The notes under the pieces are model-generated. The model had not been told where the DNA came from, did not search any database, and worked only from the letters and a program-made list of their open reading frames with translations. From Candidatus Multivoradales bacterium (GTDB lineage: Bacteria; Acidobacteriota; Thermoanaerobaculia; Multivoradales; JAHEKO01), in the NCBI GenBank assembly GCA_965223855.1, contig CBDCXM010000009.1:640001-704000 (forward strand): a DNA stretch of 64,000 nt. The letters run 5' to 3'. Position numbers and translations under genes: made by a program. Shown here one piece after another: positions 2-3,547 of this stretch. Positions within the stretch are counted from its first letter, which is position 1. Every line of letters begins with the position of its first letter.

Positions 2-472
2 ATGAACGTCACCGACCTGCGCCAGCTCCGCCGTCTCGGTAGCGGCCTTTTCACCGCCGCGCTGATCGTCCTCCATGCGCGCCTCCTGTGGAGCCGCTGG
101 AGCGACGGTTCGCTGTTCGAGCCCGGAGTGATCGCGCGCTGGTTGGCGTCCGCCGTGCTGCTGACGGCGATGCTCGCCCTCTACCGGCGCCACAGCTCGC
201 TCTTCTCCGGTCGCCGATCGGCGGTCCTGTGGCTTCTCGTCGCCCTGCTGCACGCGGCGGCGGGGATCACTCCGGTGGCGGCGACCGAGGCGACCTTGCC
301 GTGGCTGGCAGCGCCGACGCTCGCTCTCGCCCTCGCGGCCGGAGCGGCCGCGTTGCGCCCGCGAGAGCCTCAGCGGCTGGTACCGGTCGCCTTCGCCCGG
401 ACCTGCTCGCCCGGCCTGCCTCCGGCCGCAAGCCGGCGCCCCGCCGGCGCCCGCGCGCCGCCGCTCGTCTGA
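2..472 (+). CDS. 4-TM membrane protein ending in a RAPP motif; putative arrest-peptide leader of the TonB-dependent receptor locus
   Basis: 156-aa ORF with four hydrophobic segments, intramembrane His25 and His84, and a Pro/Arg-rich tail ending ...GARAPPLV-stop. The start is at the window edge, so upstream context is unseen. Confidence 0.7.
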   Translation: MNVTDLRQLRRLGSGLFTAALIVLHARLLWSRWSDGSLFEPGVIARWLASAVLLTAMLALYRRHSSLFSGRRSAVLWLLVALLHAAAGITPVAATEATLPWLAAPTLALALAAGAAALRPREPQRLVPVAFARTCSPGLPPAASRRPAGARAPPLV

Positions 473-565
473 GAGCCCCTGCCTGACGCTTCGCCGGCTT
501 TTCGTGCCGGCGGCCCCCCCGGGCTCCTCGCCCGGACGCTTCCATTTCCATTGGGAGAACCGATC

Positions 566-3547
566 ATGGCTCTCGAAGATCTGCATCGCGGCGTGCTCTA
601 CCTGCCCGCCGTCACGACACTGTTCTCGGCCTTCTTCAGCTACAACCTTTTTCGCCGCTATCGCGACAAGGGTGGCGGCGCCCACCTGCTGTGGTGGGGC
701 ATCGGCATGGTCACCTACGGCATCGGCACCTTCACCGAGGCGTGGACGTCGATCGCCGGTTGGCACCCCGCCGTGTTCAAAGCGTGGTACATCGCCGGCG
801 CCTTCCTCGGCGGCTACCCGCTCGCGCAGGGAAGCATCTTCCTGCTCATGCGGCGGCGCTTCGCCGTCGCTTCGGCGTGGATCGCCAGCGGCTTCATCCT
901 CGTCGCCTCGCTGTGCCTTCTGGCGAGCCCGATCGCCGTCGAACGGGCCCAGGAGTTCCGTCTGTCGGGCGACGTCCTCGAATGGGGATGGGTGCGGCTG
1001 CTCAGCCCGTTCATCAACATCTACTCGCTGATCTTCCTGGTCGGTGGAGCGATCGTCTCCGCGATCCGCTTTCGCCGTCACTCGAGCCTGCGCCACCGCT
1101 ACCTGGGCAACATCTGGATCGCCGTCGGCGCCCTGCTGCCGGGGATCGGCGGTTCCTTCACCCGCTTCGGCTACGTCGAAGCGCTCTACATCACCGAACT
1201 GGTCGGACTGCTGTGCATTTATCGCGGCTACCGGCTCAACATCCGCGACAGCTCGGCCGTCAGGGCCCGCGCCGTGGATCCGACCCCAACGGAGCCCGAC
1301 ATGTCTCCCGCCACCTCCCGACTCGCTCTGCTGCTCGCCCCCCTGCTCGCCCTCTCCATCCCACTGAGCGCGCAGGACGACGGCGCCTCGACCGAGGAGC
1401 CTGCGTCGTTCTTCGCCACCACCACGGTGACCGCCACCGGCTCCGAGATCGACACCTTCGAGATCGCCAATCCGGTGAACGTCATCACCGCCGAGGAGAT
1501 CGAGACGGTGGCGCCGCAGAACGCCTCCGACCTTCTGCGCTCCGAACCCGGAGTCGACGTGGACGGCGTCGGTCCCAACCAGTCGCGTCCGATCGTCCGC
1601 GGCCAGCGGGGACTGAGGGTCCTCTTCCTCGAGAACGGCCTGCGGATGAACAATCCTCGTCGTCAGACCGACTTCGGTGAGATCCCGGGCCTCGTCGACA
1701 TCGACGACGTCGCGGTGATGGAGGTCGTGCGCGGCCCGTCGTCCGTGCTTTACGGCAGTGACGCCATCGGCGGCGTGCTCAACCTGGTGACCCGCTCCGC
1801 GATCATCGGCTCCGATTTCGCCGGCTCGCTTTCCGGCCGCTACGCCTCTGCCGGCAGCGGCACGCAGTTCGGAGCCCACCTTTCCGGCGGCGGCGAACGC
1901 AGCGCCTGGAAGCTCTCGCTCACCGAGCGTTCGTTCGACGACTACGACGCCGCCGCCGGCAGCTTCGGCGCGATCGACCTGACGGACGGCGCCACGGTCA
2001 CCGACACCGGGCTCGACGACACGAGCGTGTCGGCCAGCCTCGTCTGGGCGCTCGACGACTCGAGCGACCTGCGCTTGCGATGGAACCGCTACCGCGCCGA
2101 CGACACCGGCTTCGGCTTCGTCGAACCGGAGCTGATCGGCGACGACTCCGGGGCCAGGATTCGCATCCTCTATCCGTTCCAGGACTTCGATCGGCTGGCG
2201 CTCTCCTACACCGGCAGCGACTTCGCGCTGCCGTGGATCGACTCGCTCGACGCCCAGCTCTACCACCAGAGCAACGAGCGCAACCTGGTCAACGACATCT
2301 TCATCGACATCGGCCCGATCGCGCCCGGCTTCCCGAACTCGTCGGTCCAGGCCGACACCGACAACTTCACCGATCTCGACTCGCTCGGCCTGCGTCTCGA
2401 AGCGGTCAAGAGCTTCGGCGGCCGCCACCTGCTGACCTACGGGGTCGAGGCCTACGAGGACGAGTCGTTCAACACCGACGCTTCCGTGACGACGACCACC
2501 ATCGCCTTCCCGTTTCCCCCGTTCGCCGTCGTCGACGTCCAGACCGACACCGTCGCCAACGCCCCCAACGCCACCAACTCGAGCGCCGGCATCTTCGCTC
2601 AGACGGAGCTGGCGGCGGGAGATCGCTGGAAGCTCACCTTCGGTGCGCGCTCACAGACAGTCGATACCCGCGCCGAGGCCACGCCCGGCTGGGACATCTC
2701 GGGCCTCGACTTCAGCGACAGCGCCACCGTCGCCTCGGCGAGCGCGCTCTTCCGCGCCAGCGACAACATTCACCTCTCGCTCGCCTGGGGCTCGGCGTTC
2801 CGCGCTCCGAACCTGATCGAGCGGCTGTTCAACGGCCTCACCCCGGAGGGGATCGGCTTCCAGATCCTCAACCCCGACCTGACGTCCGAAGACAGTGAGA
2901 CGGTCGATCTCGGCCTCAAGTACCGCCGCGCCGACACCCTCATGGAACTCAACCTCTTCCGCACCGACATAGACGACGGGATCGTGCAGTACTTCCTGAC
3001 CGGTGCCGACATCGCTGCGCTCCCCACCGACGTCCAGGACGAGATCGCCCAGAGCGGCGTCACCTTCGTCGTCCAGCAGCGCAACATCGACCGGCTGCGC
3101 TACGAGGGAGTGGAGCTCCTGGTTCAGCAGCGGCTCGGCAACGCCTGGACTCTCGGCGGCAACGCGACCTATCTCGACGCCGAGCGGCTCGACTCCGCCA
3201 ACCCGCCGACCGGCGACACCTTCGGCGAGAAGCTCAATCTGTTCGGCCGCTGGCAGCCGGACGGCGGTCGCGGCTGGGTCGAGTACCGGCTGCGGCACAA
3301 CGGCGGCGATCGCGCCAATCTCGATCCCGGCGAGCCGGTGCCCCCTGTCGGCCCCGAGCTGCCGTCGTTCACCGTCCACACCCTCGCCGCCGGCTACGAG
3401 GTCGGCACGACCGGACGGCTGCGGCACCATCTTGGTGTGGTGGTCGACAACCTCACCGACGAGCTCTACGCCGAGTTCTCGAACGCCGCGTTCTTCCGGC
3501 CGCAGCCGGAGCGCCGGGTGGTGGCGACCTACCGGCTGCGCTTCTAG
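566..3547 (+). CDS. 7-TM membrane domain fused in frame to a TonB-dependent receptor
   Basis: GGAG RBS before ATG 566 and no stop until 3547. The first ~230 aa hold seven hydrophobic helices; the rest is a TBDR. Confidence 0.75.
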   Translation: MALEDLHRGVLYLPAVTTLFSAFFSYNLFRRYRDKGGGAHLLWWGIGMVTYGIGTFTEAWTSIAGWHPAVFKAWYIAGAFLGGYPLAQGSIFLLMRRRFAVASAWIASGFILVASLCLLASPIAVERAQEFRLSGDVLEWGWVRLLSPFINIYSLIFLVGGAIVSAIRFRRHSSLRHRYLGNIWIAVGALLPGIGGSFTRFGYVEALYITELVGLLCIYRGYRLNIRDSSAVRARAVDPTPTEPDMSPATSRLALLLAPLLALSIPLSAQDDGASTEEPASFFATTTVTATGSEIDTFEIANPVNVITAEEIETVAPQNASDLLRSEPGVDVDGVGPNQSRPIVRGQRGLRVLFLENGLRMNNPRRQTDFGEIPGLVDIDDVAVMEVVRGPSSVLYGSDAIGGVLNLVTRSAIIGSDFAGSLSGRYASAGSGTQFGAHLSGGGERSAWKLSLTERSFDDYDAAAGSFGAIDLTDGATVTDTGLDDTSVSASLVWALDDSSDLRLRWNRYRADDTGFGFVEPELIGDDSGARIRILYPFQDFDRLALSYTGSDFALPWIDSLDAQLYHQSNERNLVNDIFIDIGPIAPGFPNSSVQADTDNFTDLDSLGLRLEAVKSFGGRHLLTYGVEAYEDESFNTDASVTTTTIAFPFPPFAVVDVQTDTVANAPNATNSSAGIFAQTELAAGDRWKLTFGARSQTVDTRAEATPGWDISGLDFSDSATVASASALFRASDNIHLSLAWGSAFRAPNLIERLFNGLTPEGIGFQILNPDLTSEDSETVDLGLKYRRADTLMELNLFRTDIDDGIVQYFLTGADIAALPTDVQDEIAQSGVTFVVQQRNIDRLRYEGVELLVQQRLGNAWTLGGNATYLDAERLDSANPPTGDTFGEKLNLFGRWQPDGGRGWVEYRLRHNGGDRANLDPGEPVPPVGPELPSFTVHTLAAGYEVGTTGRLRHHLGVVVDNLTDELYAEFSNAAFFRPQPERRVVATYRLRF
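1301..3547 (+). CDS. TonB-dependent receptor (internal start within the 566..3547 ORF)
   Basis: GGAG at 1291, ATG at 1301, signal peptide MSPATSRLALLLAPLLALSIPLSA-QD, TonB-box-like TTTVTAT, plug motif EVVRGPSSVLYGSDAIGGVLNLVT, FRAP and NPDL motifs, and C-terminal YRLRF. Confidence 0.9.
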   Translation: MSPATSRLALLLAPLLALSIPLSAQDDGASTEEPASFFATTTVTATGSEIDTFEIANPVNVITAEEIETVAPQNASDLLRSEPGVDVDGVGPNQSRPIVRGQRGLRVLFLENGLRMNNPRRQTDFGEIPGLVDIDDVAVMEVVRGPSSVLYGSDAIGGVLNLVTRSAIIGSDFAGSLSGRYASAGSGTQFGAHLSGGGERSAWKLSLTERSFDDYDAAAGSFGAIDLTDGATVTDTGLDDTSVSASLVWALDDSSDLRLRWNRYRADDTGFGFVEPELIGDDSGARIRILYPFQDFDRLALSYTGSDFALPWIDSLDAQLYHQSNERNLVNDIFIDIGPIAPGFPNSSVQADTDNFTDLDSLGLRLEAVKSFGGRHLLTYGVEAYEDESFNTDASVTTTTIAFPFPPFAVVDVQTDTVANAPNATNSSAGIFAQTELAAGDRWKLTFGARSQTVDTRAEATPGWDISGLDFSDSATVASASALFRASDNIHLSLAWGSAFRAPNLIERLFNGLTPEGIGFQILNPDLTSEDSETVDLGLKYRRADTLMELNLFRTDIDDGIVQYFLTGADIAALPTDVQDEIAQSGVTFVVQQRNIDRLRYEGVELLVQQRLGNAWTLGGNATYLDAERLDSANPPTGDTFGEKLNLFGRWQPDGGRGWVEYRLRHNGGDRANLDPGEPVPPVGPELPSFTVHTLAAGYEVGTTGRLRHHLGVVVDNLTDELYAEFSNAAFFRPQPERRVVATYRLRF

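Follow-up and report, generated by a model that had tools for sequence, protein, structure and literature searches.

The window examined here is a stretch of 64,000 nucleotides from a Candidatus Multivoradales bacterium of the phylum Acidobacteriota (contig CBDCXM010000009.1, positions 640,001 to 704,000, or G000:C9:640001-704000 in the notation used below, G000 being the window's genome). At its very start lies open reading frame 1 (ORF1), encoding a small protein with four transmembrane (TM) helices that carries, just before its stop codon, an R-A-P-P sequence of the type found in ribosome arrest peptides, and that is followed on the same strand by a gene for a seven-TM protein (ORF2) and by a TonB-dependent receptor gene. 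From the comparisons described here, we favor with modest confidence the view that ORF1 is a heme-responsive RAPP-type arrest leader carried on a four-helix inner-membrane sensor. The parts of ORF1 are as follows.

2 to 472, forward strand: ORF1, a four-TM leader protein of 156 amino acids; the coordinates include the stop codon.
41 to 94, forward strand: TM1, about residues 14-31, with the invariant His25 (nucleotides 74-76) about 5-6 residues from the periplasmic end.
125 to 181, forward strand: TM2, about residues 42-60, with R46 and the invariant W47 at its periplasmic start.
218 to 271, forward strand: TM3, about residues 73-90, with W77 and the invariant His84 (nucleotides 251-253), preceded by R71 of the cytoplasmic loop.
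299 to 355, forward strand: TM4, about residues 100-118, hydrophobic and poorly conserved in sequence.
356 to 451, forward strand: linker, residues 119-150, hypervariable, positively charged and long enough to fill the ribosomal exit tunnel.
452 to 463, forward strand: R151-A-P-P arrest-type motif (CGC GCG CCG CCG), followed by L-V and the stop.

ORF1 starts with the ATG at nucleotide 2 and stops with the TGA at 470-472, according to the sequence and the ORF list, and its guanine-plus-cytosine (GC) content of 0.745/0.618/0.879 at the three codon positions is the coding pattern of a 69% GC genome; together with the homologues found in the database, this bears out the first-pass annotation, made from the letters of the window, in taking 2..472 for a real gene. 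The upstream genome sequence offers an alternative GTG start 42 nucleotides 5' of the ATG, the ATG being the position at which same-genus homologues begin, and an M3 oligoendopeptidase-like gene lies upstream, ending 68 nucleotides before the ATG. The family carries no annotation and is found in Acidobacteriota: ORF1 matches no Pfam family at E values up to 1 and no NCBIfam family, and no Pfam assignment is precomputed for 72 ORF1 homologues.

Conservation and spacing of the terminal RxPP motif

The RAPP that the first-pass annotation placed at nucleotides 452-463 is indeed present there, close to the stop, and its counterparts recur throughout the family. ORF1 ends in R-[A/P]-P-P at 19 of 20 relatives' loci, and in a first alignment of 33 sequences, 27-45% identical to ORF1, the only invariant positions were H25, W47, W77, H84, R151 and P154. 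A profile search of 1.84 billion representatives returned 635 ORF1-family proteins at E values up to 0.001. R.PP occurs within the last 40 residues of 157 out of 161 family proteins, the remaining four looking truncated, and takes the forms RPPP (97), RAPP (50), RGPP (6), RSPP (2), RQPP (1) and REPP (1). In an alignment of 214 members, R151 is kept in 207 and P153 and P154 in 208 each (six gaps stem from fragments), with position x occupied by Pro in 142, Ala in 56, Gly in 7 and Ser in 2; two thirds of the members use RPPP. The motif sits 1-7 residues before the stop in 151 of the 157 proteins, the invariant R, P and P standing in an otherwise hypervariable tail. Since the motif Arg is written with six codons and the Pro with all four, the constraint lies on the peptide. 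T-ending rare codons are nevertheless enriched in the motif, CCT making up 25% of its Pro codons versus 6% elsewhere in ORF1, and the P-site Pro codon is CCT in 19 of 50 loci; the window uses CCG CCG.

Two departures were seen among the loci. In L008 (genome G024) the motif reads RASP and the tail is 29 residues longer, and in L091 the tail (…RRRSSLPPPALA) has Leu in place of the motif Arg; both variants may be decayed leaders or sequencing errors.

The most trivial alternative is that RAPP belongs to the accidental Arg/Ala/Pro-rich tail of a high-GC ORF, or that the frame is non-coding altogether. The genome is 69% GC, Arg, Ala and Pro are common in it, and long spurious ORFs are plentiful on both strands; the first-pass annotation had itself remarked that an accidental RAPP would not be conserved at the C terminus of homologues. 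The homologues do keep it, in 157 of 161 and in 208 of 214 proteins, and this, together with the coding GC3 (third codon position) pattern, the 635 database representatives and the conserved synteny, refutes the alternative and leaves it a negligible probability. The tetrapeptide is, moreover, depleted in the window's genome as a whole: among 2962 coding-like ORFs, chosen with our own GC3 filter rather than a gene caller and compared with an expectation from composition, RAPP occurs 16 times versus 37.2 expected and RGPP 9 times versus 29.2, the reversed PPAR occurring 39 times versus 37.2. Three of the 16 genomic RAPPs fall in the last 15 residues of their ORFs.

The natural variation at position x can be set beside published saturation mutagenesis of ApcA, ApdA and ApdP, in which, as Fujiwara et al. 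2025 (PMC12992588) describe, the Arg was irreplaceable, a change of Ala to Gly was fully permissive and changes to Pro, Ser or Asp were partially permissive; random screens in the same article yielded RxPP with x = G, A, S or P. Judged from the alignment, the set used by the ORF1 family (P, A, G, S) matches this arrest-permissive set. By analogy with the stall position in ApdA and ApdP (PMC12992588, section 7), the ribosome would be expected to stall with Pro153 (458-460) occupying the P site and Pro154 (461-463) the A site.

A median of 36 residues separates the end of TM4 from the motif Arg, the count falling between 31 and 43 in 189 of 205 members, in agreement with the exit-tunnel spacing that the first-pass annotation had read from ORF1 itself, and the net charge of the tail has a median of +5. 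A linker of constrained length with a TM helix just past the tunnel is the geometry of force-releasable arrest peptides, and with a constrained linker of about 36 residues TM4 of ORF1 would, by the same geometry, have just left the exit tunnel at the stall. When the 157 tails are anchored on the Arg, a weaker upstream signature appears, with G at -8 (85 tails), L at -3 (91 tails), an aromatic residue or Leu at -7 and a small residue at -1, which would fit contacts with the tunnel wall.

The putative sensor domain

Upstream of the tail, conservation is concentrated in a few residues of the membrane domain: in the 214 aligned proteins H25 is kept in 210, W47 in 211, W77 in 212 and H84 in 213, followed by R71 (203), R46 (180) and R32 (161). 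The two His residues are thus co-conserved with the terminal motif, a pairing for which the first-pass annotation had suggested looking. Its description of four hydrophobic helices with His25 and His84 and no CxxC was likewise upheld by sequence and hydropathy; ORF1 contains a single Cys, and the family has no conserved Cys column.

The positive-inside rule places the Arg-rich N terminus, the TM2-TM3 loop (…RR.G.SL..GR.A) and the tail in the cytoplasm and the TM1-TM2 loop (LLW.R..DGSL..P) in the periplasm, giving a putative N-in/C-in topology. H25 and H84 are then some 5-6 residues deep, counted from the periplasmic ends of their helices (TM1 and TM3), and R32, R46 and W47 lie at the periplasmic surface; this arrangement appears to resemble the bis-His and Arg sites of b-type hemes. 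In the AlphaFold model of ORF1 (mean predicted local distance difference test score 73.1), helices span residues 3-35, 41-62, 71-87 (with a further 91-97) and 100-118, and residues 119-156 form an unstructured tail. A comparison of the ORF1 profile with the PDB by sequence found no relative, Foldseek with the model gave no match at or below an E value of 0.001, and VIA-align gave generic helical hairpins, with Z up to 7.1. In the Protein Atlas, the matches of an ORF1 homologue and of ORF2 were clusters of 'hypothetical protein' only; the named cluster nearest to the ORF1 homologue, DUF6412 at 0.82, was at chance level and was discarded.

Genes downstream of the leader

The region that follows ORF1 in the window contains these features.

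473 to 565, forward strand: intergenic region of 93 nucleotides, with hairpins at 492-512, 519-535 and 539-557.
566 to 1300, forward strand: ORF2, a seven-TM protein of 245 amino acids from an unannotated family that is a conserved companion of receptors of this type, with no stop codon before the receptor.
1301 to 3547, forward strand: TonB-dependent receptor, with its own Met, a signal-peptide-like segment, a Plug domain and a barrel.

The first-pass annotation had ORF1 directly upstream of the receptor. Linkage of the two is confirmed, as in all 20 loci from the window's taxonomic order ORF2 and/or a receptor comes after ORF1 on the same strand; immediate neighborhood is not, for ORF2 lies between them. 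Among 55 unique ORF1 loci, a receptor and/or ORF2 is found downstream in 37 and hemA in 16 (called by Pfam, L035 being counted from Pfam), while L059, with a partial match, and L066, at a contig end, are undecidable. In 53 of the 55, therefore, receptor/ORF2 or hemA lies downstream on the same strand. The ORF1-family gene is always the first of its operon, co-oriented with the rest and followed by a long intergenic region, and none of the 55 has a Sec or YidC gene downstream.

In both hemA loci examined, hemC, hemL, hemE and a hemN-like gene are found further downstream, with hemD and hemB as well in L072, where the order is leader, hemA, hemC, hemD, hemB, a hemL-type aminotransferase gene and hemE; the hemN-like radical SAM gene of L071 scores 266 bits against TIGR00538 on a partial ORF. 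L037 has a CcsA/HemX-like Cytochrom_C_asm (PF01578) gene between the leader and hemA.

ORF1 homologues occur in 21 of 41 related genomes and in 18 of 401 sampled genomes of the phylum, and family-level searches found them in 18 of 19 genomes of family f78 and in 13 of 61 of family f65; all named members belong to Acidobacteriota (Thermoanaerobaculia, Vicinamibacteria and others). On a tree of 51 leaders, two switches of context have to be assumed. Genome G436 of family f78 (loci L057 and L061) carries two copies, one hemA-linked with RAPP and one receptor-linked with RPPP. In the tree, the receptor-linked f78 copies (G436 and also G443, L058) cluster with their f65 counterparts, suggesting that the import module has been transferred.

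Apparent heme auxotrophy and the probable signal

Heme, or a close tetrapyrrole, is indicated as the signal by context of three independent kinds: the resemblance of the receptors to heme receptors, the hemA operons described above, and the occurrence of receptor-linked copies mostly in genomes lacking heme biosynthesis. The window's receptor has clear Plug (2.7e-22) and barrel (2.2e-41) domains by Pfam, and its best NCBIfam match is TIGR01785, at 204 bits against a cut-off of 316.85. The receptors of L068, L069 and L070 score 165-174 bits against cut-offs of 316.85 and 323.75 (TIGR01785/TIGR01786), so that all four receptors scored have one of these heme/hemoglobin receptor families as their best match; this likeness, falling below the cut-offs, is taken as a lead supported by context rather than as membership. 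The solved relatives found by sequence are CirA, ShuA, PhuR and BtuB, matched chiefly through the plug domain.

The window's genome, 92.5% complete, yielded no match for hemA (PF05201), hemB (PF00490), hemC (PF01379), hemE (PF01208) or the ferrochelatase gene hemH (PF00762), and it contains three COX1 (heme-copper oxidase) genes. Among 41 relatives, hemA and hemB are both present in the same 18, and the distribution relative to ORF1 is as follows.

ORF1 present: 19 genomes without hemA/hemB, 2 with both.
ORF1 absent: 4 genomes without hemA/hemB, 16 with both.

The odds ratio is 38 and the Fisher p value 5.8e-6, a value that, like the one below, overstates the association since related genomes are not independent. 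In the same order, the four cells are 12/2/2/14 for genomes at least 90% complete and 18/1/3/3 within family f1. In the unrelated family f65 they are 5/8/3/45 (odds ratio 9.4, p 0.008), heme genes being missing from 5 of 13 ORF1-positive versus 3 of 48 ORF1-negative genomes. These tallies include genomes flagged as unpublished, namely G005 in the first table and G467 and G494 in f65, all of which lack ORF1 and have the heme genes. The window's genome and most of its family thus appear to be heme auxotrophs. Of the 24 other f1 genomes searched, 20 yielded no hemA or hemB, several of them 96-100% complete, and heme-copper oxidases were present.

That ORF1 acts through arrest we consider probable. 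Its signal could even so be something other than heme, either the force of membrane insertion, as in arrest peptides of the SecM, MifM and ApdA type, or another ligand of the His pair, such as Fe, Cu, Zn or a porphyrin precursor. The motif, the spacing and the TM architecture would suit any force-releasable arrest, and His coordinates metals of many kinds; copper is the signal for the known RAPP sensors of TonB transporters, as described for CruR (PMC9426467), a four-TM RAPP peptide of Streptomyces is predicted to use His and Met as Cu ligands (PMC12992588), and the present receptors remain under the heme-family cut-offs. We nonetheless regard a non-heme signal as unlikely. The 55 loci contain no Sec or YidC gene downstream, ORF1 has no Cys/Met motif typical of Cu sites, and the same family heads hemA operons (16/55) and is linked to receptors preferentially where heme biosynthesis is missing. 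Heme fits both contexts because ample heme should lower import and synthesis alike, whereas iron, which is expected to act oppositely on uptake and on heme synthesis, fits less well. Provided that regulation is by arrest, heme is therefore the likely signal, and the 'metal or heme' ligand proposed by the first-pass annotation is narrowed to its heme side by genomic context.

The intergenic RNA and proposed readout of a stall

The intergenic regions that follow the leaders are 85-206 nucleotides long, with a median of 141. In the window, the third hairpin pairs with the Shine-Dalgarno sequence of ORF2, GGGAG (553-557), and in the minimum free energy fold (-73.5 kcal/mol, z -2.53) nucleotides 453-477, running from the RAPP codons to just past the stop, pair with 568-596 in the first ORF2 codons; this fold also encloses a small hairpin over the GGGAG sequence. 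Relative to dinucleotide shuffles, the 50 nucleotides after the ORF1 stop have a mean z of -1.16, with 32 of 50 loci below -1 and 10 below -2. All 15 hemA-linked loci that were folded have a hairpin soon after the stop, mostly within about 12 nucleotides (about 20 in L048 and L050), and in a few, for example L051, a U-rich tract follows it. Opening the downstream ribosome-binding site has a mean computed cost of 18.9 kcal/mol; with a ribosome footprint placed on RxPP, 16 of 33 loci show a drop of more than 1 kcal/mol and 3 a rise, versus 10 falls and 8 rises, and 9 falls and 12 rises, for control footprints 45 or 75 nucleotides upstream.

On the coupling itself we commit ourselves only to a readout of the stall through the intergenic RNA, which would operate either by unmasking of the ribosome-binding site as in SecM and CutF, so that a stall means on, or by a CruR-like Rho block or terminator hairpin. 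The former is slightly favored and the latter is a live alternative; the window's genome encodes Rho as well. No Rfam family was matched at E values up to 0.1 in five loci, so that a riboswitch is not present there, and a simple scan around ORF1 detected no promoter-like or terminator-like site. An anti-Shine-Dalgarno role of the Pro codons, CCUCC pairing with the downstream Shine-Dalgarno sequence, was considered and not adopted for the window, which ranks worst in this respect. A Rho-utilization-like bias of C over G (median C/G 1.07 in the intergenic region and 1.27 in the linker) was uninformative.

The 5' ends of the leaders have a peculiarity of their own. TAnnnT-like hexamers stand 5-12 nucleotides 5' of many ORF1 starts (L005, L006, L013, L014, L015, L018, L021 and L022), and Shine-Dalgarno sequences are scarce at these loci; the combination hints that the mRNAs are leaderless or have a very short leader. 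The best such hexamer of the window, TACAGT, overlaps the alternative GTG start.

The RNA data also bear on an explanation in which nothing downstream is controlled at all, that is, ORF1 would be a mature heme-handling membrane protein, for instance a HemX-like modulator or an accessory subunit that binds b-type heme, and RxPP a protein-level feature serving partner or protease recognition or a folding pause. The computed RNA coupling is weak, the strong conservation of H25, W47, R71, W77 and H84 is what a folded, functional protein would show, L037 places a CcsA/HemX-like gene in the same operon, and even a product released from a stalled ribosome could keep a function of its own. This explanation leaves unaccounted for the agreement of the x residues with the arrest-permissive set, the constant position of the motif close to the stop, behind a tunnel-length linker whose sequence is free, the avoidance of RAPP elsewhere in the proteome, the T-ending rare codons in the motif and the invariable place of the gene at the head of an operon with a long intergenic region after it. 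We consider it rather improbable, and return to arrest-based regulation in what follows.

The ORF2-receptor pair

ORF2 has no Pfam or NCBIfam family, and its profile gave a chance match only against the PDB (E 0.27); HisKA_7TM, its nearest named cluster in the Protein Atlas at 0.83, was likewise at chance level and was set aside. In L068, the gene after the receptor shares 49% identity with ORF2, and the L068 and L070 versions are 77% identical to each other. With this homologue standing 3' of the receptor, leader, receptor and ORF2 therefore form a trio with changeable gene order.

In 8 of 11 loci holding both genes (the window, L004, L006, L011, L012, L020, L021 and L022), ORF2 runs in frame without a stop into the receptor, and in L021 no Met precedes the receptor's signal-peptide-like segment. 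The C terminus of ORF2 is predicted inside, and the signal-peptide-like segment would then serve as an eighth TM helix with a signal-peptidase-type site (…LSA/QDD). Such an arrangement may produce one fused protein that is then cut at the membrane, or two separate products of the one frame; we know of no precedent for it.

The ORF2 family has at least 516 loci among species representatives, whose hosts include Acidobacteriota, Gemmatimonadota, Calditrichota, Bacteroidales, a KSB1/Deferribacteres bin, Polyangiaceae, Xanthobacteraceae and Chloroflexia. Among the best 80 ORF2 loci (L073-L152), a homologous TonB receptor adjoins on the same strand in 53, and an ORF1-type leader is present in only 31, all named ones being Acidobacteriota; the Gemmatimonadota loci have receptor and ORF2 without a leader. 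Thirteen ORF2 sequences share 75 invariant columns, including H40 in HLLWW. ORF2 is a candidate inner-membrane partner of the receptor, perhaps a heme permease.

Other terminal RAPP sequences in the genome

Two further ORFs of the window's genome, both outside the window, end in RAPP. The first (G000:C9:3063130-3063483, reverse strand; L026 2731-3084, reverse strand) encodes a 117-residue leader with a signal peptide, a His-rich HDHESLGHEH segment and CVDC, then 43 residues and RAPPAA-stop. It is followed by a receptor with CarboxypepD_reg, Plug and barrel domains, whose best NCBIfam match is ZnuD at 391 bits against a cut-off of 950; the layout is CruR-like, but there is no Pfam DUF2946 match. 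The second (G000:C9:591913-592701, reverse strand; L027 1414-2202, reverse strand), a DUF2064/nucleotidyltransferase-like ORF ending in …AGRAPPL upstream of a methyltransferase gene, was rejected as a leader; because it has no membrane signal, its RAPP is probably due to chance or to an over-extended frame.

Comparison with known arrest peptides

ORF1 shows three sequence-level features of RAPP-type arrest peptides, namely a terminal R-[A/G]-P-P core, a TM or secretion signal and co-oriented downstream genes. The localization machinery encoded downstream of the members of the Sec/YidC-monitoring class (SecM, MifM, VemP and ApdA) is absent from the ORF1 loci. SecM of Escherichia coli has the extended motif FxxxxWIxxxxGIRAGP and a single signal peptide, and it monitors secretion rather than a small molecule. 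What it would have in common with ORF1 is a force-releasable arrest near the C terminus, the R-A-G-P type of ending and control of the next gene by the intergenic RNA (PMC12992588).

ApdA, ApdP and ApcA are RAPP/RAPG arrest peptides encoded upstream of secDF and yidC (Fujiwara 2024, PMC10987492; Morici 2024, PMC10951233). They resemble ORF1 in the C-terminal R-A/G-P-P core with its invariant Arg, in the N-terminal membrane or secretion signal and in the arrest expected with codons three and four of the motif in the P and A sites. ORF1 differs in that its downstream genes do not encode protein-localization machinery, its sensor is polytopic with ligand-type residues, and its family has mostly Pro at position 2 of the motif.

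A close parallel is CruR (Bp2923, DUF2946/PF11162) of Bordetella pertussis (Roy et al. 2022, PMC9426467), whose gene lies upstream of that for the TonB-dependent transporter BfrG. Both leaders are first in their operons, exported or membrane-targeted, and carry RAPP a few residues before the stop, with a long intergenic region after it; in both a spacer separates the ligand site from RAPP, a TonB-dependent transporter is encoded downstream, and the signal is, or for ORF1 would be if it is heme, a toxic nutrient. Unlike CruR, with its signal peptide, soluble domain and a CxxC about 45 residues before RAPP, ORF1 has four TM helices and two intramembrane His residues, no CxxC and no Pfam DUF2946 (PF11162) match. 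Its spacer is also less fixed, 55-84 residues separating His84 from the Arg, RPPP is the commonest form of the motif in its family, the ligand would be heme instead of copper, and the family also heads heme-biosynthesis operons.

CutF of Rhodobacter capsulatus, whose gene precedes that of the multicopper oxidase CutO, is an exported sensor that acts as a nascent chain; it has a Pro-rich, stalling-like motif at its C terminus, and a stem-loop shields the downstream ribosome-binding site (Ozturk et al. 2023, PMC9973294), a combination that we propose for ORF1 as well. Its ligand binding is described as changing co-translational export (PMC9973294), a step for which an analogue may exist in ORF1. 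CutF differs in its Sec signal peptide, its CxxxC and its sensing of Cu; Cu prolongs the stall, whereas physiology would suggest the opposite polarity for ORF1.

More generally, an enrichment of small RAPP or RGPP proteins upstream of TonB receptor genes and of metal genes was described by Fujiwara et al. 2025 (PMC12992588). Almost all the TonB-receptor upstream ORFs described there have signal peptides, unlike the polytopic ORF1, and SLIV_18480 of Streptomyces lividans, going by its description in that article, is alike in having four TM helices with a conserved His. The main text of the article contains no mention of heme, hemA, glutamyl-tRNA, cytochrome or RPPP, its supplements possibly listing family members, and a full-text literature search returned no heme-linked bacterial arrest peptide.

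Proposed mechanism and implications

Several observations weigh against a heme-responsive arrest leader and have to be set beside the evidence for it. The commonest form of the motif, RPPP, is only partially permissive in the ApdA/ApdP reporters (PMC12992588), and the window's genome encodes EF-P. The tail of the window's own ORF1 (…SRRPAGARAPPLV) lacks most of the upstream signature, having A at -3, S at -7 and A at -8, so that its arrest may be weaker. The four receptors do not qualify as members of the curated heme families, the fold searches with ORF1 returned nothing specific, and 8 of the 13 ORF1-positive f65 genomes do have hemB. On the RNA side, the opening cost in the window falls only from 18.8 to 17.9 kcal/mol (by 0.9), an initial test of whether the ribosome-binding site becomes exposed gave mixed results (9 up, 7 down), pairing of the motif with the Shine-Dalgarno sequence lies at or below the 10th percentile of control windows in only 7 of 33 loci, and RNAalifold found no consensus structure in 15 hemA-linked intergenic regions, whose alignment is too divergent.

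In the mechanism that we infer, TM1-TM4 would insert into the membrane during translation of ORF1, leaving both termini inside, and the ribosome would stall at R151-A-P-P with about 35 residues of the tail in the tunnel and TM4 right beyond its exit. How long the stall lasts would depend on the state of the nascent four-helix bundle, in which the invariant His pair, one on TM1 and one on TM3, level with each other close to the periplasmic side and with Arg and Trp nearby, most likely binds heme. The stalled or released ribosome would in turn set expression of the downstream operon through the long structured intergenic RNA, the regulated operon being ORF2 and the heme-type TonB-dependent receptor in the window, in a genome apparently unable to make heme, and hemA-hemC-hemD-hemB-hemL-hemE-hemN in other lineages. 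The most economical polarity would be that at low heme a long stall keeps the downstream genes on, and that on heme binding the bundle folds and pulls, releasing the stall and turning them off.

The known RAPP-type small-molecule sensors respond to copper through soluble Cys motifs. Taken at its widest, our reading would make ORF1 the first heme-responsive nascent-chain sensor, a polytopic bis-His domain that binds heme on an RxPP-arrested ribosome and so sets heme import or expression of the hemA operon, accompanied by an undescribed heme import pair, receptor plus ORF2, often in one reading frame and spread over several phyla; in this full form we put it forward tentatively, as quite possible but short of probable. 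If true, it would extend arrest-peptide regulation to tetrapyrrole homeostasis, with one leader module movable between an uptake operon and a biosynthesis operon. The RxPP variants of the family (RPPP > RAPP > RGPP > RSPP) would offer a natural set for studying how position 2 tunes arrest and EF-P sensitivity, and an ORF1-type leader could be used as a compact genetic heme reporter. For the organisms themselves, receptor plus ORF2 would be a candidate heme importer in Acidobacteriota, Gemmatimonadota, Calditrichota and others, and the leader would explain how heme scavenging is controlled in the heme-auxotrophic Acidobacteriota of soil and sediment.

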